Assembly: GCA_021432655.1 (NCBI GenBank) | Contig: MU271355.1 | Coordinates: 1 to 64,000 of the forward strand | From: Atractiella rhizophila | Taxonomy: Eukaryota | Length of the DNA stretch: 64,000 nucleotides | Direction: 5' to 3' | Shown: piece after piece, positions 22,950 through 46,465 of the stretch | How positions within the stretch are numbered: the stretch's first letter is position 1 | Layout: each line of letters begins with the position of its first letter | The notes under the pieces: model-generated | The model's database searches: none | What the model was told of the DNA's origin: nothing | The model's input: only the letters and a program-made list of their open reading frames with translations | Program-made: the position numbers and the translations under genes

Positions 22950-25001
22950 TAGGGAATGTATACGGGTCACCCGTGACCCCATGGGGAAATCCGCCACGGG
23001 TAAGAGACACAATCCATATCCCTACCCCTCCCTGTACCCGCGGAGCATTCACCCGTGCTCCCCTTGGTTGTACGGGGTTTCCCACGGGTAACCTGTGGAT
23101 GCTCATGGGTGAAAGGGGCACGGGTTAGACCCATGGATATCATAGCTGAACCAAAGTTTTCAATGTATTTCGGATCATGTAACTCACAAATAGTTCCTGA
23201 CCAATCAATGACAATCTCAGCAACACCTGCCGTCCTCTTCCGCTGCTGCCTGCCTCCTTTTGTTCACCATCGCTGTTCTCCAGGAGGACACAAGCTCCTT
23301 CACATCCGCTAAGAGCCCATCCTCATCCCAAAGCTTCAGCATCAACAAGGCACAGAATCTGGCATCCAAAAGTCGGTGACGAAGGTAAGTGACTGTGAGG
23401 CGCCCATCCAAAAAAGCCCTCTCAACATCAGTTGAAGAGCCTTCAGAAGATTTGTCAGAGTGATCACAAAGAGCCTTGAGGAAGGGACTAACACGGAATG
23501 GCGGAAATGTCCATCGCAAGCTCCCAGAATTTCCTCTCCTGCTCTGATCCTGCTACCTTCCAAGCCTTGTAGTGGTAGCTCAATGCATCTAACTCATTTG
23601 TTGACCCGTCCTCTCGCAAGACAATGGCTTCTGGTTTTGCATCCAAAAACTCCATAAGGAAGTCCACTTCAACTGGTGCCCCATTCAATTGCTTGATCAT
23701 CGGATCATACGATGCCATTTTCATCTTCTTTCGCAGATGCCGGTCCTAACCATAATTCATTCAGGATTGTTGGTAACCAGGACATACTTTGCGGCTCATG
23801 TCAGTCTCTCCTGTCATGGTTACTGTGTAATACTTTTGATAATACTCTTTCAGGCTGTTGACTGCATCGGCAATCCAAACTGTTTCCCAATCTAGCAACT
23901 TCAAATAAGCCATCCTTCGATTTGAATGAAGAACTGTGACAAGTCGGGCAATGAGACAACAAAAAACCAGGAGCATATGAAGCGCCCAAGTGCATATATG
24001 TGCCTCATCTGTTACCTTTGAGAAGTACTTATCAAGCAGCTTGTGGGCATGCTCTGCACCATTCAGAATAGCCATATGACCCTCAGCAAAATGCCACTCA
24101 CCATCCAACTGATAATCTTCATACAGCCGGGATAGGTGAATGCCAATGTTATTGAACATTGGTATCACACGAGCGAGATTGGGACTGTCAGATTGTGACA
24201 TTTTGTCGCTCGTCTCCTGAAAGAGCTGGAGCACATTTCAGCACATTGCGTCATGATTATCACAAAGGCAAAAGACTTACATCAAACGACGGAACAAGCT
24301 CATCCAAGATCGACTAGTCCATTCCTGTCAGTCGGCATTTCTCCAGCTTCAGCCTTGGCTTCCGGCAGACATTTGCGATGGGCTCCCTCAGCTGCAGAGC
24401 GCGATTGACCATTGCACCTTCACCATTCCATCGGGTGGGGCAAGCACGAATGAGGTGGATTGGCCGCTTGAAGTGCTTGAGCACTCCGGCTGGGTCGTCT
24501 TTCTGCGCTTGCAGAACTTCGGTCTCCAGGCTTGTGCGTATTGCATCGCTGTCTTCAACCCTCTTGGCCAGATTAGTGACCTGATCCAATGGAGTGGCTG
24601 TGAGAAACATAAGTTGTAAGTCAAAACAACTAATCAAACCTTCGTAAGTGTGAAGCGAGCCTCACGTTCCTGCTTTGCGGAACATTCTGTTGCCATGGCC
24701 TGGTTATCAATTGCCATGATGGCAGCATCATCAGCCTGCGCTTCGTCCGAAGCCCCTTTAATCTGGTAAGCGCAGAACTGGACTCCGGGACCACTCACCA
24801 ATGATGTCTGCCTCATCTCCAAAGTCCGTCTCATTGATTTCATGATCCAGTTCTGCCAATGCAGCTTCATCCAGTACAACAGATGTTCCGACTCCATGCA
24901 CTGAGGACTTCTTGGTTACCGGACATTTGAAGCATGAGATAAATGCCTGGTGATGGCATTGGTTTGATAATTAACACAAAAACATTTAGTAACGCAACAT
25001 A
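22950..25001 (-). mobile_element. hAT transposon, 3' half (degenerate transposase), truncated at 25001 by a foldback terminus
   Basis: CPTRWNG, LDKYF, AMDISAIP and SSTDVERAF (C-terminal dimerisation domain). Terminus TAGGGAATGTATACGGG at 22950 with ACCCG/CGGGT subterminal motifs. Confidence 0.9.
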
Positions 25002-25189
25002 CTACTAACAGTACTTTAGGGTTCAACCCTGCCTCTTTCAGGAATGAGATCCAGGCTGAATCCTTGCCTCCTGGGGACCTAGGGTACAACCCTGCCTCTG
25101 TCAGGAACAGGATCCTGGCTACACCCTTGGTTTAGAAATCTGTTCTCTGTACGTTATTAACTATAAGTGCAATTTTGCAAAACTGCACC

Positions 25190-25355
25190 AGATCGATAGG
25201 TTATCGACATCAGGTATAGAGGAGTCTGAGGGGTGCAATTTTGTTGAAAGTGGCCCATGTCGATAGGTTATCGACACCTCGTGTAGAGGGGTCTCATGAG
25301 TTCAATTTTGTTGAAAGTGGCCCATGTCGATAGGTTATCGACACTACGTATAGAG
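25190..25355 (+). repeat. ~67-bp tandem repeat (type B) carrying hairpin GTCGATA-GGT-TATCGAC
   Basis: Three copies; period 67 (25257 to 25324). Confidence 0.92.
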
Positions 25356-25984
25356 GGGTATGAGAACCAAAGTTTCATGAAACTCGGCCAGGCAGCCGCT
25401 TCAGATTGGCTACAGACATGGATAGATTTATACCCTGCTGAAAGTAGTGCATGCATTGGATGTATACTTGAGCAAGCGAGGGGCTGAATTGTGTAGAATC
25501 AATTTGGGGTATGCACAAACTTGAATGTATGACCAATGATCAAGATAATGGAGCTGTTTAAAATAGTAATACCATTAAAATGAAAAAGTGTTAAGAATGA
25601 TTTAACAAATGTGACCTATTAAAGAGCTTGTTTCGAATCATTACGGTCGAATATGGCGATAAGCAGATGATCAATAATGGTTTTAGTGACAATGAACAAG
25701 ATCATTGCTAAACACTCCGGAAGACAGGCGCATGTGAAGCTATTCTAAACCCTTTATAATTTTTAAATCTTTTAGTGATTGTAACATAAGTCTGAGCGAC
25801 ATAGTAAAACATGCAATGATGACGGTGGTTTGCAGGAACATTTTCAAGTGAAGCATATGGAGCTAGAGGACCTCTGTGGAAGTGATATATCATTCATATG
25901 GAAATTGCATGTATATATGAACTTTGTCGCCACATCCTCATTAGCCACCTTTGGTGATGAGCAAGACATTAGAATGTTTGGAGC

Positions 25985-26850
25985 AAAATTGCACTTTCCA
26001 CACCCCCTCTACACCTGTGTGGATAACCTATCAACTGGGGACGTTTTGAGCGAAATTGCACTTTCCACACCCCCTCTACACCAGCGTCGATAACCTATCG
26101 ACTGGGAACGTTTTCAACAAAATTGCCCTGCAGTGACCCCCTCTACACCTGTGTCGATAACCTATCGACTGGGGACGTTTTGAGCGAAATTGCACTTTCC
26201 ACACCCGCTGTACACCAGTGTTGATAACCTATCGACTGGGGATGTTTTCAACAAAATTGCCCTGCAGTGACCCCTCTGCTCAGAGAGGTTTTGGTTGCAA
26301 CAACCCTAAAAAAAAAAAAAAAAAACCTGTGTCGATAACCTATCGACTGGGGACGTTTTGAGCGAAATTGCACTTTCCACACCCCCTCTACACCGGTGTC
26401 GATAACCTATCGACTGGAAACGTTTTCAACAAAATTGCCCTGCAGTGACCCCGTGGGAGTAATATATCATTCATATCAAAATTGCATGTATATGTGAAGT
26501 TTGTCTCCACATCCTCATTAGCTACCTTTGGTGATGAGCCAGAGATTAGGATGTTTGGAGCGCAATTGCTCTTTCCACACCCCGTCTACACCAGTGTCGA
26601 TAACCTATCAACTGGGGATGTTTGGAGCGCAATTGCTCTTTCCACACCCCGTCTACACCAGTGTCGATAACCTATCGACTGGGGATGTTTTGAGCGAAAT
26701 TGGACTTTCCACACCCCCTCTACACCTGTGTCGATAACCTATCGACTGGGGTCGTTTTCAACAAAATTGCCTGGCAGTGACCCCCTCTACACCAGTGTTG
26801 ATAACCTATTGACTGGGGACGTTTTCAACAAAATTGCCCGCTGTGACCCC
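25985..26850 (-). repeat. Type B repeat array in opposite orientation (GTCGATA-ACC-TATCGAC), with an A18 tract and a duplicated core block
   Basis: About ten hairpin copies; poly(A) at ~26308-26325; the ~25875-25990 block is duplicated at ~26453-26570. Confidence 0.92.
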
Positions 26851-27050
26851 CTCTGCTTGGAGATGTTTTTATTGTCACAACCCTTTCTTCATCATTTACA
26901 CCCTTTTTCTGCAATGTTTCTGGTGCCTCTCTACATGCTCCACATGTTATCAATGTGCAGTATTCTTCTTAACAACTTTAAATCCCTTTCTGACACTAAG
27001 CTGTTACTTCCCTTTCTGATGTCTGGTGCACAAGCCATTCCTGCATGCTT

Positions 27051-27205
27051 ACCACACATCCGGCAGGCTCCCCACACATCCGGCTTACCACACATCCGGC
27101 AGGCTCCCCACACATCCGGCTTACCACACATCCGGCAGGCTCCCCACACATCCGGCTCACCGCACCTCAGGCTGGCCACACATCCGGCTTACCATACATC
27201 TGGCT
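27051..27205 (+). repeat. 36-bp tandem repeat (ACCACACATCCGGCAGGCTCCCCACACATCCGGCTT) x3 plus degenerate units
   Basis: Directly visible; built from a CACATCCGGC core. Confidence 0.93.
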
Positions 27206-27477
27206 CCTAAGCTTCACATCTGTTTGTTGTTGTCTTACGTGCCCACATCTGTGGCAACAGGGCACGTTGTGTCGAATAGATTGATCGCTCTTAGAACCGA
27301 TCATCCCCACATGACTTGCATTGCAACCTTGATCACCAAAAGTTATAAAAGACCCTGTTGCCTGCACTTGTTCCCCAGACAGATTGTCACCCAAAGCGTT
27401 TTTCCAGAACACATCAAACACCTGAGCATTAAACACCCCCCATTAACATATGAAATCCAAAAAAAAAACAATCGAAA

Positions 27478-30400
27478 TGGCTTTAGTTACAGCTGCGTTT
27501 CCTTCTCACTCTATTTCATTCGGACCCGGATTGGCTTTCGGTCCCCAATTGGCTCACAAGATCAACTCCTACCCCAAGGTAGACGTGGCGAGACCTACCA
27601 TCATCAAGTTTGTGCCCATCCACGTGAACAATATAGACCCATCCAGTGGGTCATTTAAAGGTAGAACTCCTAGCCCTATAATGCCTCAGTGATCATCATG
27701 CTGACTCAGATATAGGACAAGCTCAGTCTGGCCCAGCTAAGAAAAGGGTGCCCCATACAAAGCCCATCTCCAAGCTTGGGGCATTCAGAGCAGGTGGCCA
27801 TGTGATCAGCACTGGCCCTGACAATGAAGGCTGGCGAACCATCATTGCACACCCACATCTACAGGCAAAGCGGGCGAGGGAGGCAAAGCTAGCAAGGCTC
27901 GCTCTGAACAAGCAGCCAAGGTTCAAGGCCCACCCGATCTCTCCTGCATCAGCAGGACCAACAAAGTTGCAGAGACCAGTCGGTCTACGTCATATCAGTC
28001 TGGGTATGCTGAAATCTGCAACGCGACAAGCTAGGCCCCCAGAATATGGTCGTCTTCACTCACTCCCATTGAAGAGCTCCTGTCACAATTTACCCACGAT
28101 TTCGAAAGCAACTGGCACGGTCCCTTCCAATGCTCCAAGTTCAAAGGTAGTCACTGGAACGAGTGGGAGAAACAAACCGCAAAAGAGTGCAAAGAGAAAC
28201 AGTACTTCTGTTGACCATGGAGGGAAGAGACATGGAGGGACATCCGCTAAGGAGGGCATGAAGGAATGTCAAGGAAGTGGAGAAGTGGAGGGGCTGGTGG
28301 GGGGAATCGAGCAAGGAAGATCGGCACCCGAGACAGAAACGTGGGATTACGGACGTTGATGTTTCAGAGGAGACATCGTCAGAAAGCGAAGCGGAGAAGA
28401 GAGCGAAGGAGAAGAAAACGCCAGCCACAAAGAAGAGAAAGACTGAAGGGAAGAAGAGGGTAGGGAAGAAACTGGTCAATTATGGGCTGGGAAGAAGCGT
28501 TATGGTCAGCAATATTCATCCTCATTGGGCTTGCTGACCATGGTGCAAGTGTCATGACACCAGAGACAAGCAAGGGAGGGACAATCAAGCTCCCATTCAA
28601 CTTCATGTCTCCACATCTAGGGTAAGTAACACCGTCTGGATGACAAAGCTAAGAGTGCTGCAGGAGGATCACGTTGGAAGATGGAAGTGTCCGTCTACGC
28701 CAGTTCACAGACTTTCCCACCTTGGCCCCACTCTTCTTGTGGTACGAATTTGGATATGAGCCATCGGTAGAACAAGCGAAGAAACATGCGTTATCCCAGG
28801 CAACAATCGATTCGCTTGCAAATGGAGCCGCCTTCATCAACAAGTACAAACAAAACACGGCGGTGGCCATTGATCGTCGAGGGTATCAACTTGAGGACCT
28901 GCCTCCTGCCCTTCGCCAGGCCAAATTCGGCAAGGAAGTGGTCAAATCCATATTCTACAAAAAAAGCAAACCAGTCCGTGTCGAAATGCTACGATTGGCA
29001 CACGAATTTGGAATGGTACCCTGGGCACACCTCCATCACTACACAGAAACCACCAAAGTGGATCAAGCGATTTATGGGAACCCCGCTGGAAGCTTTGTGC
29101 ACATTGATAGGCTTGACCCCACCATGGCAAAGGTGACCGCTGAGTAAAAATCACATTCAAGTGACTGAGAAAGATCACAGGCCAAAGTCATGCTGAACAA
29201 CTGCCAACCGAAAACAGCAGATCAGGCATGGAGCACTTGTCAAGCCGGAAGGATCGCCATCACGAAGCTCTGGTTTGGTCACGAAGGTGAGTCCTCACAT
29301 CTTTGAGACAACAGGCTGACCCACTCGACAGCGGAAGACAAGGAAGGCAATCTCGACAGGTACTGCGAGAGAGCAGCTCAGGCCGCGTTCGCAAGAAAAG
29401 TGTTCGAACCGCTGGCTCTCACGTTCCGTCGAAAATACAACAGGGCTATGGAGAACTGGAGAGACATCACCATCGTCCTAGATAGTATGCAGCCCCAGTG
29501 CTTTTAGGCAAACTGACGATGAGGACAGAGTTGATGCCTAGCTGGGACAAGTCAGACGAGGAGAAGACGTTGGATGCAGAAACTGTCAAGGCAGATGTAA
29601 GGGATCCTCACCAAACAAGCACAGATCGACTCCATGAACAGCAAGCGATCGAACTCCTACATCTTTGCCGACATGTCATCTCAACATACTCCACATGGGG
29701 TCTTGATCTCCGTCAACATCCTGTGGCTTTTCGAGAGAAGACCATCGCCTTTGTCATGGATCAGATCAAGGGATTCATCATGGACAAAGGAATAATCCTC
29801 ACATCGTTGCAGAGCCAGGAACGTGCTGAGTGTATCTGCTCCATAGTGACCATATATGGAGAGATGGACAGGTACGTCGGCGCTCATGGCCAGCAACATG
29901 AAGTTTGAGATGGAGGACGACGAGAGGAGCGCCTTGGCCATGGAGTGGAACTTTGGAGCCAGTACGAGCAATGTGGAGGAGATTGTCACTTTGATGGAAA
30001 GCCCATCCTTGGATGGTGTAGCAGAGAAGACAGTGTAGGCGATGGAGAAAGCTTTGGCCGAAGATCCCGGAGTGAATGAAGTTGCCACGCTCATGAAGGA
30101 TGAAGTCATGACGGACATGGGTCTAGAGACAGACAAACCATTCCCTGGTTTCCGGTCAACAGTCTACCCCATCAAGGACCAGAAAGAAAAGAAGCTGGGG
30201 GACCTGGGGGAAGGGGAACCCTTCGATCTCTTCGGACACCAAGTCGAAGGAATCCACTGCATCGTGAAAGGACTCCATTCTGCCACCGACTCACAGTTGG
30301 CGTGGGCAGAACATCAATGTCGGTTCCTGTGTGCTTCGGTCAGTCTCGGAAGACCATGACTGCAACAGGGACCTTAGCCTATCTGCACCACCTTTACAAA

Positions 30401-33400
30401 AACACCTCCACTACCCCAAACCTGGACAAGGTCTGCAAAGCGGTAGTGCATGGAGTCCTCAACTATCAAGGAGAATACAATCCTCCAACAGGAACAGATG
30501 CTGTCAAAGTCCTTACCAATGTTTTGGAAGAGATCTGCGACCAGAAGTCTCGAGAGATGTAAGGAGAGGTTTCCCAAGATTACTTTGCGCTCGTCAAGTC
30601 CGCAGTCCATCACATCGCAATGCTTCTCAAGGACAAGCCTGACTGGATCGACCCTTTGAAGAGACGAGGCGAAGACACCCTCAAGTACACCGCTCTTTTG
30701 AAAGAGAAAGCCAAGATAGCACTCACCGGTTACACATTCCCACCATTTCTGAGTAAGCCTCCTGCAAACCACATCTAAGCTCATGTTTCATTCAGGAGAC
30801 ACACTCGTCTTTGCAGGGGATGGGCGGATGAAGAATCTTCCCTCATTACTCATAGTTCCTCATAACCTCATGAACCAATGGAGGATAGAAATTGAGAACA
30901 AAATGGATCCCTCCCACCTCTGATACCTCGTCTATGGCGATGATGTCCGTTCTCGGGCCACCTTTCACAAGAGTCACAAGAATCTCTTGGAGGGAAAAGA
31001 GAAGGACACCTCCAGCATAGTTGTCATCATTTCTGACAACACCTTGACAACAGAAGTGGATTGGCTGGAGGGCAAGAACAGGATCGACATCCACCGGGTA
31101 CGAGAGAAGTCAGAGCTCACAAGATAACACCTTCCATCTTTGACTATCGCTTTTGTCTCACAGTAGTGGACGAACATCACACCCATCAAACAAGGGGGAA
31201 CTCACAGCAGCTGTTCACCAGGCATGCTGCAGGGTCCAGGCGGTGCTCGCCATCACCGCCACTCCACTCTTCACACGTGTGGAAGTAAACACGCTCTTTT
31301 TATAAGATGCAGCGAACAACCAGAAAAGGACATATTCGTGCAGGTCCTATCACTAGGACTTGTCCTCACGACTTGAGTCATGTATTTGACAGTCGCAGAA
31401 CTGGCGAGACGGATCTGTTCAGCCGGAGGAGGGCAGGGACGATGCAGGAGAAGAGGACGTTCAACTTCGATGAAGAGGAGATTCCCATAGGTTTCGAACA
31501 GCTGAAGGAACAAGAGGCCAAGAAACTCTTAGAAAACAACAAGAAAGTGCCCACCAGGCAGCAGATGTCTTAGAGGGGATCAGCGGGATGGAAGCAGAGT
31601 TTGAGACCACAAAGACAAAGGCATCTGAGGGACAAGGTGTCAGCATCGCGGAGATGGAAAGGACAGACATCAAAGCGATGGCTGAGTCTGTGAAGAAGGC
31701 TGCAGGATTCCTTGAGGCTCTGGGAGGAAAGAACATCACACAGAGGGAGGAGGAAAGAAGACATCGGAAGTAGCAACCATGCTAGCCTAGAAAATCTTTC
31801 ATCCCCTTATAATCCGGAGGACTCAAGCATCAGTGGACAAGAATGGCAAACCCATCTCTGTCCAAGAGCCCATCAAGATCAAGAAAACGACAACCAAACT
31901 ATTGAAAGCAGAAGCCAGTGTGCACAAGGACATCGTCAATGCTGCAAAGAGCGCACCTTCAGATGGAAAGGGAGACAGATTCTGGACCCAATATAGGACG
32001 ATGCTCAATCATGTCTGCTTCCCAACTGACCGCCCCGACGACTCTACTGTTGCCTCCTTCTGGGGATTCCTCGGTGTCCAAACAGAGAGAAGAAAACCAA
32101 ACAGATCATTTGGAAGACCAGATGGAGGTGGATGCAGTCACACAGCCAGAGCCCAGTTCATCCTGCACTCAAGAGGGCGGCATGTAAGCCGACAGCCAGC
32201 AGCCACGTGCCTCAGATGCCTCCATCGTACCAGAGGATGATTCCACAGGTCCATGGGGGCAAGCTAGCAAGGTGGACAAATGGACATGGATCCCACGTGA
32301 GGTACCAAAAGGGTGGATACCAGAGAGTCCAGCTGAGGATCCTTATCCATCGACAAAGCTCATGTCCTTGTGTCACCTGCTCAGAGAACTGGTCACAGAC
32401 AAGGATTGGAAGGGGAAGATCACCGTATATGTCTCCTGGCCAAGCAGGAAGCCAATAGTCCCAAAGGCAAGTAAAATGCATTCCGATAACCAGGTTGACT
32501 GGTTTCACAGTATATGGAGTGGTATGACATCCCAACACTGTGGGTGGATGGCACCAGTGTGAAGGATTCAGAAGATGGCCACAAAGCGATGAGGATGGTA
32601 AACATGGAGGCGCCTTACTTAGCAGATGATGGCTCACTCCTTCAGAGGTGGTGGTCTTCTTGCCTGTAAGCAATGTGGGCATAACCTTGTACCGATGTTC
32701 TCACTTGATCCTGCTGGTGAGTTGTGGGCTATTTCAGATGTAACAAAGCTAACACTGTCAATCCAGGATGTTCAATGGTCAGCCTTCGAGATAGAACAGA
32801 CCATCGGAAGAGTCTACAGGTACCCCAACCCATACCATGTCACCGTCTGGCGCTTGGTCTCCGAAGGGAGCACCGATGTGCCAATGTCAATCATCGCCTC
32901 CACCAAGCGCTTCCTCTCCCATACGCTCCTCAATCCACAAGACATGACATTGCTGGAATCTTAACTTCCAGAGATGCTCGACCTCGTTCAGAAGCTCATG
33001 GGAGTCCAAATTCCATGGCTCGATGCTGAAGAAGTGGACTCTGATCCAGAGGAGGTGAAGAAGAGGGAGAACGACGACCCGAAGGGATTGTTGGGAGATC
33101 GCCAATTTCAAACGTCCAAACGTGTGGAGAGACTAGAAGAAACAGAAGCCATCAAGACCAAGTCCATAGAGAAATATAGGGCAAAGGACATCGAGATTCA
33201 GAGAGCATCCGTGTTGTATACACATTCCATCAAGGCCGAGGAGGCAGACATCCCGAGGGAAGCCAAGGGGAAGAAGGTCCAACGGGACAAGTGTGAGGCT
33301 GAGTGATCTAAAGGTGATAGGACTACAATCTACATGGCCCCACTTACCTAGTACGACCCCCCCAGATGATGTCATGGTCGCAAGGCGCGCGCATTACGCA

Positions 33401-33791
33401 ACCTGCATCCACTACTTTCCTTGATCAGTGGAAGTCTTCAACAGTCGCTGACGATGATCTGGACGATGATTGAGAGCCTTCGGTGGGTAGAGAGGCTTGG
33501 GAAAGTGAGTTCTGAGAGGAGGCGACAGAGGAGATTACGCCGGAGATGGTGAAGAAGGTGAGGACGAGAGCTAATAAGAAGGCGGACAGGAGGATTAAAC
33601 GAATGACGACTCATAGGTTTATGTCACAGGTGTTATTGAAGGCTCTCAAAGATGAGAAGGGATTATGGGAAAGTCAGCGGGATGAGCCAGTGCCTATGGA
33701 CGACCATGCTCATGGCTCAAGTAACAAGAGGAAAGGATGGGCAATGGTTGCAGATGGGCTCAAGAGGCTCAGGAGCTCTGGGGCCCGATAG
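27478..33791 (+). pseudogene. SNF2-family (SF2) helicase/ATPase pseudogene with a long basic N-terminus
   Basis: LFGHQVEG (~30230), frameshifted Walker A SLG/KTMTA (~30345), LLIVPHNLMNQWRIEI (~30850), VVDEHH (~31165), ITATP (~31252), STKL...ITVYVSW (~32350-32440), EQTIGRVYR...VTVWRLVSEGSTD (~32795-32877). Many stops and frameshifts; boundaries approximate. Confidence 0.87.
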
Positions 33792-35343
33792 TTCGGATTG
33801 TATTCCTCGTCGATAGAGAAATAATAGAACCAATATATTCAGCTTCCGCATGGACGGACAAGGAGCAAAGTCGAGCCACCAATGCAGTATGAAGCGAGCG
33901 AAGCAAGCACAACTCTGATATATCTGAGATGCTTCATCACTGTCAGGCTTGCCCCTACGCATTACCGAAATGCACCATTTGATGTCACGTGACCTACTTT
34001 AGTACGTTGTAGGATCACGTGCCTACCCGTTACCGGTTTGCGCACGTTCGCGCTGACCGCCGCCTTCCCCCATCTCACATGAATCGCCGCTCAGCAAACC
34101 TTATACATTTCGCCGGTCTACACCGTCGCCATTATTGCCTTATTATCCTTTCTCACTTGTACTGCCCAGTATGTCTTATTTCCGAGTATTTCCTTTATTG
34201 CTTGCCTGATCTAGCTATCTTACATGTTTCAGGAAACGTATGTTACAGTTTATGGCAGTACCTTTGCATATGTATATATACATTGAGATGTAGTGGTGGT
34301 GACCTCAGAGTATTCCCTTAGGTTTACCTCCACTACAGGTTAGTCTTCTCATGCTATACTATCCACTTAGGTTTACCTCCACTACAGACGCATCGCCCGT
34401 CGGCGACCGCACATAGTGTCAGCCCTAACAATCACATCGCGGTACCATCTCTATCTCCATCGATTCTGCTTGAAAATAATGATGTAAACTCCAAGTCCTG
34501 ACCTTGTTCACTGATCCTTGGTTCTTTTGCTTCATTCAGCACGAGTGGCCACAAGGTTAGTTGATCTGCGAAGTGTCACTTCTTTCGCACCCCTTTGTGT
34601 CTTTCTACCTTCTCGTTGACAGGGCTGTTCAATATCGCAATTGACATAATAGGCGGGCATGATTGGAAAATTCCAAGAGTTCAATTCCTCTGCATGGTAC
34701 TGAGAATTAAACAAAATATAAGTGCATCGCGACACAGGCTAGCACGAGCACCTGCTCTTGTGCTATCCTGATACCTTTCTAAATCTGAAAATCTGGGTTC
34801 TTCCGGAAAGGAGAAAGGGACAACCACTTTATATATACCCCCCAATCATCTTTGTCCTTTCCATCCCTTTGTACAGCTCCTAGCCCGACCGATGTATAGA
34901 GAACATATGTCTCAACGGTTATAAATTAATTTTGCAACTTTGAATGTACTTTGTTTAATTGGAGATATATGCCAAATATCGACCAGAGCAGTCTAATGAA
35001 GCAAGCATTTCAATGGATAAGTGATTTAAGATGTGTCTTAGAGAGGACATTGCCTGTGCCTATGAGTGTTTATGTGGACATGACATTTAGACTGGATTGT
35101 TATTCCTATTTGTGGCAGGGTTCTACCCTGATTGACTAAGAGCCAACAGTTTCGTGATGATGCTGTTTTTATTGGAGGCAGGGTCGCACCCTGGGTGCCT
35201 AGGAGGCAAGGATATAGCCAGGATCCTGTTTGTTATAGAGGCAGTGTTGAGCCTAAAGTACTGTTAGTAGAGAGGGAAATAGACTGTACAACTTTCTCTC
35301 TCGTCCTCTCTAGAATGCGAGTCAAATATGAGTATCTCCAGCA

Positions 35344-35897
35344 TCATTCCTCCCCACCCTCCCGAACCCATAGGTTATTTCCCTTGCCCACCCTCAACTC
35401 TCTCACCATGCTTCTAGCTGTACGTATTGCTTCCTCAAGCCACCCTCCAAAGAACAGCCGAATCATCAACGCACGTTTTCTCATTGTCTTAACCTTTTCA
35501 GCTCCATCCACCATATCCCTCTCCTCCTTCACCCCCCTGTCCCCAAAGAACCAGCAGATGAAGTCTGAGAATACTAATCCTGTGAATTCCCAGTCGAGCA
35601 TACAGTACCGAACATCTATGGTTAGTATCGCTTTTGCATTTCGGAGGGTGTGGAAGAACTGAGGGGAAACGAGGTTTGAAGTTTCCTCACCACCGTCGAG
35701 GTAGAGTCCGGTCAGATGTTTGACGTGTGATAGGTCGAGCGGAGTGGGTAGGATGGAGATCTTTCCATCAGGCGAGTAGGGGGCGAGTGTGATATTGAGA
35801 TATTCGAGGAGAGGCGGCAGACAGGTGCCTGAGACGGAGGGAGGGAGGGGACACAGGTTGGAGAGAATCAGGAATCTGATGGGAGTGGGAGAGGCAG
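35344..35897 (-). pseudogene. 3' fragment of an F-box/LRR-like lineage-expanded protein gene, cut at 35897 by a foldback terminus
   Basis: LSNLCPLPPS...LDLSHVKHLTGLYLDGGEETSNLVS...DFICWFFGD is paralogous to 43679-44250. The ORF's apparent N-terminus is only foldback repeat. Confidence 0.7.
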
Positions 35898-35914
35898 CTA
35901 CTAACAATACTTTA

Positions 35915-36520
35915 GGGTTCAACCCTGCCTCTTTCAGGAATGAGATCCAGGCTGAATCCTTGCCTCCTGGGGACCTAGGGTACAACCCTGCCTCTGTCAG
36001 GAACAGGATCCTGGCTGAATCCTTGCCTCCTGGCAGCCCAGGGTACAACCCTACCTCTGTTAGGAACAAGATCCTGGCTACATGCTTGCCTCTTAGGCAC
36101 CCAGGGTATGAACCTGATGCTGTCGGGAACAGGATGCTGCGTACATCCTTGCCTCCTCGCCGCCTAGGGTACAACCCTGCCTATGTCAGGAACAGGATCC
36201 TGGCTGAATCCTTGCCTCCTCGCGGCCCAGGGTACAACCCTGCCTGTGTCAGGACATGATCCTGCCTACATCCTTGCCTCTTAGGCAGCCAGGGTATGAA
36301 CCTGATGCTGTCAGGAACAGGATGCTGCCTACATCCTTGCCTCCTTGTCACCGAGGGTACAACCCTGTGTGTGTCACGACACGATTCTGCCTACATCCTT
36401 GCCTCCTCGCTGCCTAGGGTACAACGCTGCCTCTTTCAGGAATGAGATCCAGGCTGAATCCTTGCCCTCCTGGCTGCCTAGGGTACAACCCTACCTCTGT
36501 CAGGAACAAGATCCTGGCTA
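35915..36520 (+). repeat. 63-bp tandem repeat (type A) x10
   Basis: GGGTACAACCC-type motif recurs at ~35915, 35978, 36041, 36104, 36167, 36230, 36292, 36355, 36417 and 36481. Confidence 0.95.
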
Positions 36521-36589
36521 CACCCTTGGTTTAGAAATCTGTTCTCTGTACGTTATTAACGATAAGTGCAATTTTCGCAAAACTACACC

Positions 36590-37770
36590 AGATCGATAGC
36601 TTATCGACATCAGGTATAGAGGGGTCTCATGAGTACAATTTTGTTGAAAGTGGCCCATGTCGATAGGTTATCGACACCTCGTGTAGAGGGGTGTCATGAG
36701 TACAATTTTGTTGAAAGTGGCCCATGTCGATAGGTTATCGACACCTCGTGTAGATGGGTCTGAGGGGTGCAATTTTGTTGAAAGTGGCCCATGTCGATAG
36801 GTTATCGACACCACATATAGAGGGGTCTGAGAACCAAAGTTTCATGAAACTCAGCCAGGCAGCCACTTAAGATTGGGTACAGACATGGATGGATCGATAC
36901 TCTGATCAAAGTAGTGCATGCATTGGATGTATACTTGAGCAAGCAAGGTGCTGAATTGTCTAGAATCAATTTGGTGGATACACAAACTTGAATGTATGAG
37001 CAATGATCAAGATGATGGAGTCGTTTGAAATAGTAATACCATTAAAATGAGAATGTGGTAAGAATGTTTTAACAAATGTGACGTATTAAAGAGCTTGTTT
37101 TGAATCATTACAGTCAAATATAACGATAAAAAGTGATCAATAATGGTTTTAGTGCCAATGCGCAAGATGATTGCTGAAACATATTACAGGACAACAGGTG
37201 CATATCACGCTGTTCTAAACCCTTCGTGACTTTTACATCTGCTAGTAATTGTAACATAAGTGTGAGCAACATTGTAAAACATGCAATGATGAGGGGGGTT
37301 TGCAGGGTTTGGGTTTCATGTGGAGCATATGGAGCTAGAACACCTCTGTGGGAGTAATATATCATTCATATTGAAATTGCATGTATGTGTGAAGTTTGTC
37401 TCCACATCCTCATTAGCTACCTTTGGTGATGAGCTAGAGATTAGGACGTTTGGAACGCAATTGCTCTTTCCACACCCCCTGTACACTAGTGTCGATAGCC
37501 TATCGACTGGGGACGTTTTGAGCGAAATTGCCTTGCAGTGACGCCCTCTACACCATTGTCGATAACCTATCGACATGGGATACTCTCAACAAAATTGTAC
37601 TGATGAGACCCCTCTACACATGGTGTCGATAACCTATCGACATGGGACACTTTCAATGAAATTGCACCCCTGAGACCCCTCTATACAAGGTGTCGATAAC
37701 CTATCGACATGGACCACTTTCAATAAAATTGTACTCATGAGACGCCTCTATACCTGATGTCGATAAGCTA
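36590..37770. repeat. Type B (67-bp hairpin) arrays in inverted orientation flanking the AT-rich core
   Basis: GTCGATAGGTTATCGAC copies at ~36590-36810 and GTCGATAACCTATCGAC copies at ~37490-37770. Confidence 0.92.
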
Positions 37771-37849
37771 TCGATCTGGTGTAGTTTTGCGAAAATTGCA
37801 CTTATCGTTAATAACGTACAGAGAACAGATTTCTAAACCAAGGGTGTAG

Positions 37850-38442
37850 CCAGGATCTTGTTCCTGACAGAGGTAGGGTTGTACCCTAGGCAGCCAGGAG
37901 GGCAAGGATTCAGCCTGGATCTCATTCCTGAAAGAGGCAGGGTTGTACCCTAGGCAGCGAGGAGGCAAGGATGTAGGCAGCATCCTGTTCCTGACAGCAT
38001 CAGGTTCATACCGTGGCTGCCTAAGAGGCAAGGATGTAGGCAGGATCATGTCCTGAAATAGGCAGTACCCTGGGCTGTGAGGAGGCAAGGATTCAGCCAG
38101 GATCCTGTTCCTGACATAGGCAGGGTTGTACCCTAGGCGGCGAGGAGGCAAGGATGTACGCAGCATCCTGTTCCCGACAGCATCAGGTTCATACCCTGGG
38201 TGCCTAAGAGGCAAGCATGTAGCCAGGATCTTGTTCCTAACAGAGGTAGGGTTGTACCCTGGGCAGCCAGGAGGCAAGGATTCAGCCAGGATCCTGTTCC
38301 TGACATAGGCAGGGTTGACCCTAGGCGGCGGGGAGGCAAGGATGTATGCAGAATCGTGTCCTGACACACGCAGGGTTGTACCCTCGACGATGAGGAGGCA
38401 AGGATGTAGGCAGGATCATGTCCTGACACAGGCAGGGTTGTA
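37850..38442 (-). repeat. Type A 63-bp array, right arm (continues at 42289-42606 after the Tc1 insertion)
   Basis: Reverse complement of the 35915-36520 units. The unit GGGTTG-TA-CCCTGGG is split by the Tc1 element. Confidence 0.94.
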
Positions 38443-41400
38443 TGGTGCAGGACACCTAGTCCCAACCTAAAATATGCAACGGAAAGTCAGCGGTGAAAAA
38501 AGCTCCAATGCACTATTTGTCTTACAGATAGCTTATTGAGGCCTATAAGATGCAAACTGTAAGACAGAATTTTGATAACTTGATTTCCGGCTGAGCACTT
38601 TCAAGTCAAATTCTGAACATTTCGGAAAGATGTGAATTGCTTGCAAATTGCTGAAAGTAGCCGGTTCGGCCCGTATATAGCCGAGGAAATCTCGGCTCCG
38701 AGCGGCTCCGGCGGTCGGATATCGGCTCCGAAACACCTTTTGCAACCTTGGGACAAAACTGTGTCGCCCACTTTGCATTCCTTGCCTTTGAGTAGCATAT
38801 TTACGATGGGCAAAGGACGCCCAACCCTATCTCAGAAAGCCAAAATCCTCAAGCTTCAAGCCGGTCGCCAAGCAAAACGAAAGGAAAAGCAGCAAATACT
38901 TGTTGCAAAGGAATTTGCCCCGCAGGAAGGCTCCCCTGGAACAAAGAAGACTGTTGAGAAGCGTGTGAGGACAAAGTCCCCATCCTTGCCCCCATTCCCG
39001 CATCCTGTGTCTCCCAACCATCCTCCACACTTCACAATCCCTCTGCCACCTCCAGACCTCCCTCCAACACCCAAAGACCTCCGAACGACGCCTTCACTCC
39101 CTTCAACATCCATTGACTGCCCACCACCTCCTGATCCACTTTCCATAGCCGAAATCGACCGCTTGCTTGGTCTGGTTGATGGCGATGACCTTGTGTTCTG
39201 TTCTCAGATGATGGAAGACACGCTGAAGGAGCTGGAAGCAGAGGGGGATGACGAGATGGAATTAGACGATCTGTATCATGCTGGACAGGTAGTCACCGAT
39301 GGTTTGGCTTTTGAAGACGATGTTGAAGAGCAAGTGTATGATGAATCCTTGGAGCATTCAGAGTATGTCTTCTCATTCAATAGTAGTTTCCAATAAAGTA
39401 ACATCATGTCCTCAGCCATGCCTCAGAAGAGACCGCCCAGGAAGAAGAATTGGAGTCGAGTAATGACGAATTGGTTCCTGCTGCCGCGTATGGATTGAAG
39501 CTGCTTGAGCGGGCTGAAGAGGATCTCCTTCGGAGGGTCTGGGAGGTGTTTTCAGAAGGAAAACAGCCCGATAGGGGATGGAGAGCGGCTGAGAAAGAAT
39601 TGAAACAAAGCGGAGGATATGGTGGAACCGGCAAGATGGCAAAGTCCACAGCTTGGGACAAGAAACAGAAGGAGGAGGCAATGAAAAGGCATGTTGTTCA
39701 CTGCTCCCCAATGTGGTTCTAGCTCTAGCTAACCAACTAAAGTCGGTGTAGAGCAGCAGAGAATACGAAGTCCCTCTACTCCTTTCTCCACCCCATCCCC
39801 TGCCACCCACTCCGATCAAGCTCGTCTTCCACCATTTCCACTCTTGATGACCACAAAAATGTAATCGAAGCCCACAATCCCCTTCCCATATCACCACCCG
39901 AGCACCATCCTCATCCTCCTTCTCCCATCCTTCCAGTGGACATTGATATTTATGTCACCTCGGATTCTAGTGGGTCAGAAGCTAGAGATGAACCGAAGAA
40001 GATGCGAGGAGGTCGGGTTAAGCCGACTCTTCTTGAACGACAGGACAAGCCACCTGCTAAGAAACCATGCCTAAATCGAAACGAGAACAAGCAAGCTCGG
40101 GAGGTGAAACTTGAAAGCTACGAAGAATTTGCCAAGGTGCTAAGGAAGGTGCTGGAAGGCAACCAGTTTGTTAGTGAGCTTCAAGCACGCCGCACTCGTG
40201 CATTGGAGTCATATTTCAATCTCCTCAAAACTGGGAAGTATACTCGCGTGATGGCTTTGGAAACAGCGGCTGCGCACATGGATTTGGTGCTACTTACGGA
40301 GGACGGAGTGTCAGGAGCTGGGGCAGTCACTTCATGAAGACAAGTGAGCTTCCTGCATCAGCTCGAGGTTTGTCTGGTTCCAGTTCTCATATCTCCATCA
40401 AGCCTTATGTGGCTACTACAGGTTGTCATCCAAAATCCTTCTCATTGTTACGAACTCCCGAAGTCAGAGAAGAGTTACGAGCTTGGATGAGAAATGAAAA
40501 GTTCAGCATGGATCCCAGTAAAGTCGTTGATTATAGTCTGGTGCACATGGTGCCGACTGCGCTTGAGAGTCATGCCAAAAAACAGGTTAACAAGGATCTT
40601 CCAGACCGACTAAAGAGTTATGTCAACCTCGAGCTTTTTCCTCGCATTGAATGGAAGCCGACTAAAGGTATTTCAAAGAGAACAGCACGTCGGTGGCTGG
40701 ACACTGAAGGGTTCAAATGGACACGTTATAAGAAAGGGCTGTATTACGAGTGTGTGTTTTTTTGTGGAAGAATTGTGTTCTAATTTCAACAGTGGGCATG
40801 AGCGGCCAGATGTTGTCAAATATCGTCAAGAGGTCTTTATCCCAACCTTTCTCTCTTTTCTTCCCCGCCTGCGCCAGTACTCGCTTACTGATGACCCACA
40901 AGAAGTCATCAAGGTGCTGCCACCCAGTGTCAAACCGGTTGTCCTTGTTGTCCATGATGAGACAACGTGTACAGCTAATGATGGGAAAACCCATTCTTGG
41001 ATGCTAGAGGGTCGGGCAAAGCTTAGGAAGAAGGGACAAGGAAGAGGAATTCATCGATCGGATTTTCTCTGTTCGACATTCGGTCATCTTGCAGATGCGG
41101 GTGTACAGATTGAATATGGGAAGAACCATGATGGATTTTGGACCGGAGAACTAATGTTAGATCAGGTCACCTCTCCTTCTCTACTCTGCTGTCACTGCGA
41201 GATTAACAATGTCGGTGAAACAGGTTAAAACCAAGTTGATTCCGCTCTTTGAACAGCTGTATCCTGGCCAACAGATGTTGTTATTACTTGACAATTCTCA
41301 AGGGCATAGCTTTTTTGCCAAAGATGCTCTGAGAGCAACCGAGATGAATCTCAACCCAGGCAGGTATTTTCAGTTAAAATACATCGGAATAATAGCTTAT

Positions 41401-42286
41401 TCAATTAAAGGAGGAGTTCAAGCAAGACTTCGGCCGGGCTGGTATGAGAAAGACGGTTTGAGGATTATACAGCCTATGGTTGATGTCAATGGCACTCCGA
41501 AAGGAATTAAAACGATACTAAAGGAACATGGGCTTTGGATTGATGGCCTGAGAGGTTGCTGCAAGAAAATAGCAGAGCATCATGATGACAACAAGTGTTG
41601 TGCCCGTAAATAATCTCAATCTTTCCTTCTTTTTGTGCATTGCTAACCGGACAATAGAGCGGTGGATGGCAGCTCAACCAGATTTTCAAGCTCAAAAAAG
41701 TGCTGTAATTGAAGCAGTAGAAGCCGCCGGTCATTATGCCATCATGCTTCCAAAATTTCATTGCGAGATCAATTATATTGAGTTTTTTTGGGGTCGAATA
41801 AAGTACTATTGCCGTGGTAAGCCTTCTGCCATTTGAGCTGCTGTTACTAAATGATTTGTTGTTAGAGAACTGTGATTATACCTTTGAAGGACTGAAGAGG
41901 ACCATCCCTGCGGCATTGAAGTCTGTCAAGCTGTCTACAATACGGAAGTTTGAACAAAGGACCCTAAGATGGGTGCAAGCATACTCGGAGGGGAAGAATG
42001 TGGTTGATGCATCTTATCAGGTTAAAAAGTACTCTTCTCATCGTAGGGTTCCCGAAAAGGCAGCAAGTAGGGATGATTATTATTTTGCAGATTAATTGGA
42101 ATAATGATTTGTAACAATGCATGATGAAAGACTTGCAGCACATTTGACCTGTCATCCTCACTTTTCTTGACTCAAAATTCACAAAATTTGACAAAAAAAA
42201 AAAAAAATTGGAAAAAAAATTTCGGACCTCCGCAGCACTATGAGTCATGCTGCGTATTTTAGGTTGGGACTAGGTGTCCTGCACCA
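38443..42286 (+). mobile_element. IS630-Tc1-mariner superfamily DNA transposon
   Basis: Perfect 32-bp TIRs TGGTGCAGGACACCTAGTCCCAACCTAAAATA (38443-38474 and 42255-42286); TA TSD at 38441-38442 and 42287-42288. Confidence 0.95.
38806..42095 (+). pseudogene. DDE transposase of the Tc1/mariner-type element (multi-exon, probable frameshift near 40275)
   Basis: GHERPDVVKYRQ, VVHDETT, KKGQGRGIHRSDFL, YGKNHDGFW, LLDNSQGH, LPKFHCEINYIEFFWG. Frame switches between AAAH and GFGATYGGR at ~40275. Confidence 0.88.
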
Positions 42287-43274
42287 TACCCTGGGCCGCG
42301 AGGAGGCAAGGATTCAGCCAGGATCCTGTTCCTGACATAGGCAAGGTTGACCGTAGGCGGCGGGAGGCAAGGATGTACGAAGCATCCTGTTCCCGACAGC
42401 ATCAGGTTCATACCCTGGGTGCCTAAGAGGCAAGCATGTAGCCAGGATCTTGTTCCTAACAGAGGTAGGGTTGTACCCTGGGCTGCCAGGAGGCAAGGAT
42501 TCAGCCAGGATCCTGTTCCTGACAGAGGCAGGGTTGTACCCTAGGTCCCCAGGAGGCAAGGATTCAGCCTGGATCTCATTCCTGAAAGAGGCAGGGTTGA
42601 ACCCTAAAGTACTGTTAGTAGGTTATGGTGGTAGAAGGCAATTTGCAGCTGGAGCAATGGGTTACAAAGGAGGACAGTGGAGGCGAATGGTCCGTGCTTC
42701 CTTTTCAGCGTTCTTAGATTCTTCAACAAAACTGACACATTGAGGCTGCAGCTTATGAAACAAGACGAGCGCTCGCACCGATAACACATCCTTCCTCTCC
42801 TCAAACATATAAACGTCTTCGACTCTCTTCGTTCTCGATTATCTCGCTTCTATCGGTCATGGTCCAAAGGCGGGAGCGGATGAAAATAGAGTAATGAAGG
42901 AAATTAACCATCTCTTCAAGCATGTAACCCTGGCTTGGGAGCTGATCCACTTTCCTTTTGGAAGTAAGAGTCAAAGCACAACTTGCACACCTTGTCTTTT
43001 CTGGCTCAAGATATTCTGGCTATTTCAGAACGTGTCTCCCCAAAGTGTTCTCACTTGTTTCAGGTTTTTCAGTGCTATCTGTTGTGCTGTGGGAGTCAAG
43101 CACATCTTCTCTGGTGCTCATGATAGACGGAGGATCACATTGCGCGCTTCCTTCGGAAATCTCAGCTTACAGAGTTTGCAAATAGAGCTGATGACATTGT
43201 AGGATGACGTTGCAGAGCTGGTCAGAAGCGACAAAAGTGTGACACGTGACACTTAAGACGTGATGAAATTGCTA

Positions 43275-43678: not shown

Positions 43679-45202
43679 TCACTCCTCAATTTCTGAGGTG
43701 ATCTCCTTGCTCCTCAGAGTGTTCCCATATTCTTTCATTATCCTCCTGGCAAATATGATCTCCTCCTCGACCCACTCTCCAAAGAATAACACAACGTCGA
43801 GATGATACCCGATTGACTCACCATCCACCCTGTCCCCCCACTCAGCTCGCCTCACACGCCAATCTGCAAAGAACCACCAGATGAGGTCTGGGAAATCAAC
43901 TGATTCCACAACACAATACTGCATCGTCATTGAACATATTGCCGTTGCATTTCTGAGGGTGCTGAAAAGCCGACAGGAAACAAGGTTTGAAGACTCCGCC
44001 CCCCATCGAGGAACAGCTTGGTGAGGTTTGTTAGGTGTGATAACTCGAGCCCAGCCGTTAGGAAGGAAGTCTTTGCTCTGGCAAGGAAGGGGCAGAGTTG
44101 AACTGTAAGCCATTCCAGATTCGGTGGCAGAGGGGAATCTGAGATGGAGAGGGAGAGGTGGCCCAGATTGAATAGATGTAGGTGCCGCAGGTTGCCCGTA
44201 GCGAGAGTGATGTGAGAGGTGGGTATTTGTCGAGCGTTAGGAATCTGAGGCAAGGAGCTAATTGAAGGCCAGCTGATTCCGAAAGGTTAGATTGGGCAGA
44301 AGAGTTCTCCACGTCCAAGGCCTCAAACAGTCTGATCCTCAAGCTCATCCTCTTCATAAAGGTCTCAATCTCGCTCCGCCTCCACCTTCTCAGGCCCTCA
44401 TCCCCAAATGTTATGTCATCCACCCGATTTAAGCCTTCAATTGCATCCAACACCATTTTTGCCTCTTCTTCGTTCCAGAATGCATCCACATATACTCTCT
44501 TAACGTTTGACGAGCCCGCAATGACAGCTTTAACCATCCCAATGCTCATACTGTCATTAAACCTCAGTTCTCTCCACAAACGTCCTGCAGCAGGATAGAG
44601 CTTCAAGCACTCGTACTTTTCAACCGCAGAATCAGGCTCCCTCCAATAAGGCATTGAAATAAACCTCCAGAGCCGGCAGACACCACAGAGGATGGAAGCC
44701 GTGTGTCGTGTAATGAAACTAAATGATGGAGAGGAGCTCGACAGGTAAGCACAAAATTGAGTGTGGAATACACCCGAGAGGTGGGTAACCCAACAATTGA
44801 ATAATGCTCGTCCCGCTGTCAGGGAGTTGTGACGGTGATTCGTCATCACCTGTAGGGACGAAGCAATGTTCTTCTCTGGCTATATAGGGCGATGGGGGCA
44901 TGGATAGCATTCTCTCGACAGATTAGGAACATGCGACTGAAGGGTTCTGGGTGAATAATTGAATTGATTTCTGAATTGGTGCATGAATTGACCTCTGATT
45001 CAACATCTGAGCACTCATCGGCACCTATTTCAGATTCGACAATTGAATCAGCAGACGAATGAACGGATGCAGGCGCTCTGCCGCCCAGAAAGCTGATCGC
45101 GACATTATTGTGGTTGAAATTGACACTAAGGCTGGCTACCCCATCATTCACGACCACATTTTCGAGTGAATCAAGTGATAAATCGGACAATTTCGAGGTC
45201 AT
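43679..45202 (-). pseudogene. F-box/LRR-like lineage-expanded protein, frameshifted
   Basis: LPVELLSII...ILCGVCRLWR (F-box-like) and LELSHLTNLTKLFLDGG, spread over several overlapping frames; paralogue of 35344-35897. Confidence 0.75.
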
Positions 45203-46465
45203 GCACGCAGGAGCTTGCGGTGTGAAATCACAAGCTAGGACAAAAGTAATCCGGAGTGAATAGATTGAATGAGGTAGGCGAGCTAGGAAAGATGGAAGAA
45301 TAGAGAGGTGGAGCGATTTGCTGAGCAGGTGTCTATGGGTGATGACATCGACCAGCGCCAGTAAGTTTGATTCCTGAGAGCTTTGGTGTAAGGGAGATGT
45401 TCCGTGCTCAACCCTAACCGTTTTGAGTGAAAATGTGCCAGACTAGGTCATAGTCTACATTAGTCATGATGAAACTTGAAGCTCAGAATAGAATAATCAT
45501 GCCTGTGGTGCATCGGCAATCGAAGAAAATTGAGCCATTGGGAGGTGAGACGAAGAAAATCGAAATTGAAACGTGGCGCTGCCTAAATGAATCGTTGCTA
45601 GGAGAACCGTGATGTCGAAAGGTGATATCCACATTTCTCAGGATGGAAGTACTTTGCCTGCCTTTATGTGATGTGGAGAACTGCCTGTCAAGCAAAGAGT
45701 TGGGCAGATTAACCTTCTGTTGATGAAGCGATTCAAGCACCTGATGTGGGGAAAGGTGTATGTTGTGTTTCGCTTTCGAACTTAGTTCTGGAGACGTACC
45801 CGTTTTGGTCTGAGGTTCGTGTCAGGCATAGCAGCTGATTGATAGCATGATTGGTCAACGCGAACCCATTCAACTGTTATGAAGGAGGTGATCATTCTTC
45901 CAACAAGATTCCCATGCTCTCGTCCAACTTTCTTAGTGAAGGCCGGCTAGTCAGAATGGGCGTCTGGAAGTTTGTCGACTTTCCAACCGAATCATCATCC
46001 TCCTTGTCTCCCGTCCCACCAGATCCACTCAGGGTCCTCTTTACTACCATGCCTTTGGCGAGACTGCGTCTAGCAGGAGATTGAGTCTGAAGCAAGACTG
46101 ACTTTGGCTCGTCTCACTCTGTTGGAACTCTTTTGCGCCGGTTGGAGTCTAACAGGAGGGGCATCCCGAATGGGAGAAGAGGCCATGATCCTGATGAAAG
46201 GGCCTTCACTGAGTCGATCAAGGCGACGAGGATAATGACGTAGGAGAGCGCGACCGTTCCCGACTGTGATTCCTGCTTCTGTCTCTACCTCGCCTGCGGC
46301 TAAGCGGGTTCGTAAGCAAGAACATCCCGCGGAGAACCACGGGACGAGTGCGAGCGTCATGATACAAAGTCTTCGCCTAGGAGCATGAGAACAGGAGCAT
46401 GAGAATGGGAGCGCAGAATTTTGAAAGGGTTGTTGTGGGTGTGGGTGGTGACATAAATGCTCAAA

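Follow-up and report, generated by a model that had tools for sequence, protein, structure and literature searches.

A 64,000-nucleotide stretch of contig MU271355.1 of the basidiomycete Atractiella rhizophila (hereafter the window) contains a decayed gene for an SNF2-like ATPase, lying between two termini of foldback type at positions 25002 and 35270. A first-pass annotation of this sequence proposed that the foldback carries and mobilises the gene. The analysis described here indicates otherwise for the copy in hand: the window does not show a foldback carrying the SNF2-like gene. What we regard as solid is an orphan, repeated and dead SNF2-like family that is found in a recurrent but irregular neighbourhood with foldbacks. 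As to how this arrangement arose, we give roughly an even chance to a nest, in which a dead SNF2-like repeat unit lies between pieces of two foldback copies, among independent mobile elements.

Four termini and the foldback family they define

To define the termini, both strands of the window were searched for the 20-nt motif CTACTAACAGTACTTTAGGG, allowing up to three mismatches, with 100 shuffles as the control. Four matches were found, at 25002 (+), 35251–35270 (−), 35898 (+) and 42602–42621 (−), with none in the shuffles. Inward of all four lie tandem 63-bp units and then arrays at 67-bp spacing, the latter being absent at the 35270 end as described below. Each 63-bp unit bears a palindromic core, AGGGT(A/T)CAACCCTG, and the core pattern GGGT(A/T)CAACCC occurs 27 times in the window against an expected 0.18. 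These features make a solid case that an Atractiella-like genome harbours a new foldback family, whose subrepeats are 63 and 67 bp long. A scan of metagenomes with a 32-nt foldback terminus gave no matches.

The four termini are not equivalent. Those at 25002, 35898 and 42621 are 97–100% alike over their first 63–128 nt, whereas the 35270 end is only 74–78% like the other three over this distance and 67–72% over 190 nt. The same is true of the units behind it: the best match of a 35270-end unit to any other unit in the window averages 0.66–0.71 with a maximum of 0.83, whilst the other 63-bp arrays match one another at 0.93–0.99. Thus, a terminal motif is present both at 25002 and at 35270, as had been claimed, though the two ends are unequal. 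Whichever of the four termini were paired, no target-site duplication of 2–12 nt was found and, since this includes the intact neighbouring copy at 35898–42621, the duplication test does not discriminate between pairings.

The neighbouring copy (35898–42621, +) is complete and serves as the reference for the family. Its left arm begins at 35898 and its right arm is made up of 37557–38442 and 42288–42621. The terminal 190 nt of the two arms are 99.5% alike and longer stretches (253–432 nt) are 94–98% complementary, so that this copy has the structure that characterises foldbacks as a class, namely long inverted arms of tandem subrepeats around a short non-coding middle. When three arm open reading frames (ORFs) of either foldback were scanned against Pfam, no family was accepted at E ≤ 0.01; a match of one arm ORF to RepB_primase_C (E 0.0012, 19.1 bits against a cut-off of 26.1) was taken as chance. 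No SNF2 sequence was found in the neighbouring copy, the only insert being a Tc1/mariner-like element in its right arm.

This insert (38443–42287, +; 3845 bp) has 39-nt inverted ends that are 97% alike and is flanked by a TA duplication within one 63-bp unit (GGGTTG-TA / TA-CCCTGG). Its transposase frames are decayed, with DDE-like stretches and a weak Pfam match to DDE_3 (E 0.018, below the cut-off). It is a nested Tc1/mariner-like insertion.

Unequal foldback pieces on the two sides of the gene

On the left of the gene, the foldback terminus (25002–25129, +) consists of the 20-nt motif and two 63-bp units. The remainder of the left piece (25130–26857, +) comprises a spacer, a 67-bp-spaced array (25180–25479), a unique middle (25480–25875) and a second 67-bp-spaced array (25876–26857). 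The inner parts are colinear with the neighbouring copy at 85–93%, and departure from the foldback consensus comes at about 26857. The second array is only about 75–78% complementary to the first and matches 37348–37556 of the neighbour in direct orientation. It is not, therefore, an inverted copy of the left arm, and the true right arm is missing from 25002–26857.

On the far side of the gene, all that is left is the terminus itself (35084–35270, −), the outlier of the four, with three divergent 63-bp units and a terminal motif carrying one mismatch; the inner right arm, with its 67-bp units and spacer, is absent. A hidden remnant of this arm was sought in 34700–35100, where alignment scores were no better than those of shuffles. 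The junctions at 26857 and 35083 are not neighbouring positions of a foldback arm. Furthermore, the left piece and the right end are 74–78% alike, compared with 99.5% for the arms of the neighbour, indicating that the two differ in age or in subfamily. Considered as a single element, 25002–35270 lacks the two long, closely matching arms of a foldback, and it is unlikely that its termini are the two ends of one transposed unit.

A dead SNF2-like gene

The SNF2-like pseudogene extends on the + strand from a start ATG at 27477 to at least 33336 and would have had about 1950 codons when intact. Its N-terminus is of low complexity and is followed by an orphan domain (about 450 residues), the SNF2-type ATPase core at approximately 30200–32960 and a charged tail. 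The proteins of its paralogues (described below) are colinear with the window, through shifting frames, over 27477–30640 and then 32604–33336. The first-pass annotation was right that no other large gene lies between the termini at 25002 and 35270: neither a transposase nor any other Pfam family was found in an ORF on either strand of 25002–35270 at E ≤ 0.01 beyond the SNF2 matches themselves. No RNA data set was listed as containing the 8.2-kb stretch, which has no bearing on whether the gene is expressed.

Several of the motifs on which the gene was originally recognised were located, and its description proved correct. Motif II, DEHH (31169–31180, +), is followed by a frameshift and then by motif III (...LAITATPL) in the next frame; motif VI, QTIGRVYR (32797–32820, +), can be read from the window translation. 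The GxGKT Walker A and DExH box expected of an SNF2 protein are thus seen as GLGKT in the paralogues and DEHH in the window. In Pfam, SNF2-rel_dom (PF00176) matches 30753–31124, read through one stop, at 25.1 bits (cut-off 24.9; E 1.1e-5), a marginal pass of the curated threshold that spans profile positions 53–123. Residues 731–763 of the paralogue P0002 match positions 17–49 of the same profile weakly (E 0.059), the two matches following profile order, and P0005 has a Helicase_C (PF00271) match at E 0.03, below the cut-off. The best PDB alignment over motif VI and the C-lobe, also weak (E 0.52), is to 1z5z, ‘Helicase of the snf2/rad54 family’. Atlas look-ups of the C-lobe, which we treat as leads only, gave Helicase_C clusters for 26 of 30 feature matches at 0.94, and ‘Snf2 family’ clusters at template-modelling (TM) scores of 0.55–0.62. 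From its motifs, then, the gene appears to encode an SNF2-type ATPase, an assignment that Pfam supports marginally.

That the gene is inactive was also borne out. The Walker A motif (motif I; 30342–30359, +) is broken, reading S L G R P stop where the paralogues have GLGKT: window positions 30345–30359 are CTC GGA AGA CCA TGA (L G R P stop), P0001 and P0002 both read GLGKTMTATG at this site, and tblastn switches frame at 30350–30353. Read against the paralogues, the damage is the loss of one A. There are in addition four in-frame stops (30560, 30921, 32962 and 33304) and, counted from the chain of ORFs, about 12 frame changes between 28482 and 32666, two of which were checked at the nucleotide level and some of which could be small introns. 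Judged by the Walker A frameshift and the stops, the ATPase is dead in the window copy.

The N-terminal region is less informative. Its approximately 700 residues have no Pfam match, including no nuclease, integrase or transposase signal, and Atlas look-ups gave nothing usable (best feature score 0.76, fold TM ≤ 0.31). An AlphaFold2 model of P0002, built from 11 aligned sequences, had a mean predicted local distance difference test (pLDDT) score of 39.5 and was unusable.

The gene is embedded in a segment, 26858–35083, for which no terminal inverted or direct repeats were found (best 14 nt, E 1.1) and which shows no similarity to the foldback middles (best E 0.13). Its 5′ flank (26858–27476, +) is common to other genomic copies, which differ in the number of tandem repeats, as seen from a contig joint at 27036/27144 and variants at 26892–27031. 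The tandem repeat concerned, of 16/20 bp with a CACACATCCGGC core, occupies 27047–27208, some 270 nt before the start codon of the SNF2-like gene.

Ownership of the 3′ segment (33337–35083) is uncertain. It has no clear coding content, and the 490-residue tail of the paralogue P0005 has no counterpart anywhere in the window, so that this segment may not belong to the SNF2 unit. Nested within it is a solo long terminal repeat (LTR)-like insertion (33941–34430; 490 bp) with TG...CA ends, flanked by a 5-bp duplication, ATCAC, at 33936–33940 and 34431–34435. Contig depth over this insertion is by far the highest in the stretch to which contigs were aligned, with loose contig ends at both borders, which points to a very abundant retroelement family as its source.

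A repeated family known only from Atractiella

Protein searches with two fragments of the window returned only hypothetical proteins of A. rhizophila, with identities to the window translation of 80–96% for P0001–P0004 and 89% for P0005. When P0001 was compared by HMMER with 1.84 billion representatives, five proteins were found, four of which (P0002, P0004, P0006 and P0008) belong to the family. The fifth, P0007 (640 residues), aligns only to a foreign N-terminal piece of the P0001 model. Residues 1–113 of P0001 are about 83% identical to part of P0007, which suggests either a chimeric gene model or a duplicated mosaic. No relatives outside the Atractiella paralogue set were found among these representatives, and a metagenome scan for P0002 relatives gave 354 pattern matches, none of which was confirmed.

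With P0001, P0003 and P0005 added to the HMMER set, there are seven distinct paralogue gene models, 48–96% identical. All seven are short (339–874 residues, where about 1950 would be expected) and several include wrong-frame stretches. The contigs available to us come from two runs of one sample. Summed contig depth is 2–12 times that of contigs matching the window copy exactly over the gene and about 16–37 times over the foldback arms, ratios that are not copy numbers. The first-pass annotation had raised the possibility of a syntenic cellular orthologue. Since the gene is repeated and only Atractiella gene models are known, it is not one; it is a member of a repeated, decaying orphan family known only from Atractiella gene models.

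Where the gene meets the foldback

One paralogue model runs directly into foldback sequence. The P0002 translation departs from the SNF2 frame at a point corresponding to 30508, and its next 83 residues are read from 63-bp units. Its tblastn matches to the foldback are all on the + strand of left arms and the − strand of right arms, that is, in outside-in orientation. A gene inside a foldback would meet the arms inside-out, and so the P0002 copy must lie outside a foldback or be interrupted by one. This is the only one of the seven models to reach foldback sequence, a weak test given that the gene models rarely extend beyond the unit.

In the window and contigs, three gene-side junctions can be identified, all at different positions: 26857, 35083 and a joint between 34892 and a 67-bp arm. 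SNF2–foldback adjacency is thus recurrent, yet the positions differ and either orientation occurs. The proposal that the foldback carries or mobilises the gene survives in part: a repeated family does adjoin the foldback more than once. Its specific form, in which 25002–35270 is one gene-bearing foldback, is not supported, in view of the unequal ends, the non-adjacent junctions, the neighbouring copy without SNF2 sequence and the outside-in orientation of P0002. The annotation had itself allowed that the gene might be flanked by two independent insertions, and for the window copy this is the better fit.

Other repeats of the neighbourhood

Immediately to the left of the region, broken ORFs at 23220–24970 (−) contain the motifs CPTRWN and ERAF, tentatively read as hAT-transposase-like; Pfam gave no match. 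Contig depth suggests that 23220–24970 is a repeat of a few dozen copies, the depth being similar to that over 42387–43000. A protein search with one of its ORFs (23764–24237, −) found no protein, and a Pfam scan of 15 flank ORFs at E ≤ 1 gave nothing beyond chance-level matches.

Between the 35270 end and the neighbouring foldback lies an ORF at 35347–35895 (−) which, with a second at 43682–45442 (−), represents a repeated family without a Pfam match; their translations are 44–52% identical, and contig depth around 35347–35895 is about 100 times the single-copy level. This member stops precisely at the foldback terminus (35898), and beyond 42621 no sequence matching its upstream part was found. 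An attempt to join the flanks of the neighbouring foldback through this family was negative, the paralogue at 43682–45442 aligning only as far as 35880 and no continuation being found to the right of 42621.

At another locus, represented by one contig in run X2, (CCCTAA)n directly abuts the right arm of a foldback, at a point corresponding to 37787. One possibility is that a chromosome end was healed onto a foldback copy or lies beside one.

How the arrangement may have arisen

The nest that we favour, at about even probability, would consist of dead mobile elements with three kinds of unit stacked. One would be the non-coding foldback family, whose intact form at 35898–42621 runs from the 20-nt terminal motif through 63-bp units, a spacer and 67-bp-spaced units to a short unique middle. 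Lacking coding capacity, it would move only in trans, and the palindromic cores of its subterminal units are likely candidates for transposase-binding sites, by analogy with the Muta1 transposon. Another would be a low-copy repeat of about 7–8 kb with a single long ORF, in which the orphan N-terminal region appears fused to the SNF2-type ATPase; the window copy of this repeat shows neither inverted nor direct terminal repeats. The third kind would comprise later arrivals: the solo LTR in the 3′ segment of the SNF2 unit and the Tc1/mariner-like element in the arm of the neighbour. The left border of the SNF2 unit would then be a young foldback, now without its true right arm, and the right border an old foldback end or one of a different subfamily. 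With ends so unequal on the two sides, the apparent enclosure would derive from two foldback copies, which either nested insertion or an exchange between foldback repeats (ectopic recombination or deletion) would have brought together. The region offers two direct examples of nesting, the Tc1/mariner-like insert with its TA duplication and the solo LTR with its 5-bp duplication.

Several observations weigh against this account and in favour of a composite akin to FB-NOF of Drosophila, in which a foldback subfamily carries the SNF2-like unit internally and the gene has been spread by foldback transposition. The gene lies between outward-facing left and right termini in the correct relative orientation, and the lack of target-site duplications cannot be held against the pair when the intact neighbour has none. 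Each of the two runs contains one contig in which 34892 is joined to an inverted 67-bp arm, inside-out (joint 25233/34892), placing the 3′ segment just inside a fuller foldback right arm at another locus or allele. A further contig (joint 25072/35225) hints that units of the 35270 type exist in other copies, and these could represent the subfamily that owns the gene. The contig variants at 26892 and 26943 show the sequence in common with other copies to extend up to about 35 nt from the left junction. With the P0002 model, a second member of the family adjoins 63-bp units; adjacency in two or three places among so few copies seems more than we would expect of unrelated repeats. Foldback copies also appear, roughly, to outnumber gene copies, as would be expected of non-autonomous derivatives.

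A composite of this kind would require the window copy to be old, with a right end that has decayed or that represents the owner subfamily, and a left end replaced or converted by a young foldback, a near-identical one lying 10.6 kb away. It must also accommodate termini that are unequal, junctions that are not contiguous in an arm, short foldbacks whose middles hold no remnant of the SNF2 unit, and the orientation of P0002. Moreover, 34436–35083, which bears the contig joint, may not belong to the SNF2 unit, the tail of P0005 lacks a counterpart in the window, and six of the seven paralogue models do not reach foldback sequence, weak test as this is. We regard the composite as possible, with rather less than an even chance. 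The strongest form of the idea, that a full-length foldback carries the giant orphan protein, with its N-terminal domain of about 450 residues and SNF2-type ATPase, as its own mobilising or silencing-evading factor, we consider unlikely.

Two further explanations dispense with the foldback as a vehicle. The SNF2-like unit may itself be mobile, belonging to a class of element not yet described. It would have landed in a foldback arm, part of which was lost in the process, and would have drawn its DNA-cutting activity from the orphan N-terminal region or from a partner that has not been seen. The family is repeated and found only in Atractiella, all copies seen have decayed in the manner of a transposon family, foldback arms do receive other insertions, and there is a precedent of sorts in the mention of SNF2 helicases as transposon-encoded, made once for ‘Inton’ and ‘Enton’ in the text available (PMC3627910). 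On the other side, the unit has no terminal repeats or border duplication, the arm sequence on the two sides is not contiguous, the Pfam scan of the N-terminal region gave no nuclease, integrase or transposase signal, and the Atlas look-ups gave nothing usable. We think this very unlikely.

Alternatively, a helicase-like family may have spread by segmental or subtelomeric duplication, as telomere-linked helicase families do, with the foldbacks simply part of the same duplicating neighbourhood. The (CCCTAA)n contig would fit such an origin, as would the P0007 fragment at the start of P0001, if it reflects a duplicated mosaic, and the repeat-rich character of the window, which has almost no cellular genes that Pfam can recognise, a scan of 20 long ORFs having picked out only a Mutator-like element (MULE) domain. 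The telomere observation nevertheless comes from one contig only and bears on the foldback, not on the gene, and the flanks of the window copy are other repeats with sharp borders; to this explanation too we assign only a slim chance. The nest remains our preferred reading of the window copy.

Comparison with known systems

FB-NOF of Drosophila melanogaster has foldback arms of tandem subrepeats and many non-coding copies, a few of which are associated with one large coding segment (NOF) beside or within an arm. The Atractiella family resembles it in having non-coding foldback copies of tandem subrepeats and a large coding segment adjoining an arm. It differs in that the flanking ends are unequal, the junctions vary from copy to copy and what is encoded, an SNF2-like ATPase, has no relation to NOF.

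The layout of the foldback is the same as that of Tetris and other foldbacks in the published description accessible to us, with an outer terminal domain, inverted arms that contain tandem repeats, an inner domain and a middle without coding sequence (PMC4079207). Few Tetris copies are structurally complete and, as far as that text goes, no autonomous partner was found (PMC4079207); also cited there is the view that different transposon lineages have each acquired a foldback structure independently. Tetris has 8–10-bp duplications and units of about 220 bp in the same portion of text (PMC4079207), whereas here no duplication is visible and the units are of 63 and 67 bp.

The palindromic cores invite a second comparison. 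In Muta1, subterminal tandem repeats with the palindromic core GGGTCTACCC strengthen transposase binding and excision, according to the available part of the report (PMC5499845). Palindrome-bearing subterminal repeats of this sort, to be set beside the GGGT(A/T)CAACCC pattern here, link the present family to Muta1 and type-2 foldback MULEs as described in that part (PMC5499845), a likeness that is a resemblance only. Unlike those elements, the Atractiella foldbacks show no 8–10-bp duplication and have no MULE transposase between their termini. Elsewhere in the window, an ORF of 555 residues (57340–59007, +) contains a MULE transposase domain (E 1.9e-7), and the terminal motif of the foldbacks does not flank this ORF.

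Closest in idea are the fungal transposons with TET/JBP genes described for Pucciniomycotina in the main text of PMC12730594, in which a KDZ-type DNA transposon carries a chromatin- or DNA-modifying enzyme that possibly aids transposition or escape from silencing. As presented in that text, those units encode a transposase and their TET/JBP frames are mostly intact (PMC12730594); the SNF2 unit contains no transposase and every copy seen is broken. The term ‘SNF2’ does not occur in the main text of that paper, although its Table S1 could list Atractiella elements. Judged by titles and the opening of abstracts, no literature on an SNF2-bearing foldback or on Atractiella repeats was found.

How mobile DNA counters host silencing is illustrated by transposons with chromatin- or DNA-modifying enzymes, among them the fungal carriers of TET/JBP. 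If an SNF2-bearing foldback did exist in Atractiella, it would be a fungal counterpart of FB-NOF in an early-diverging basidiomycete and the first foldback of this kind known at the sequence level, the window copy then being a decayed, half-converted relic. An SNF2 remodeller on a foldback would also provide a new example of such transposon-borne enzymes, and a handle on the poorly understood movement of foldbacks.

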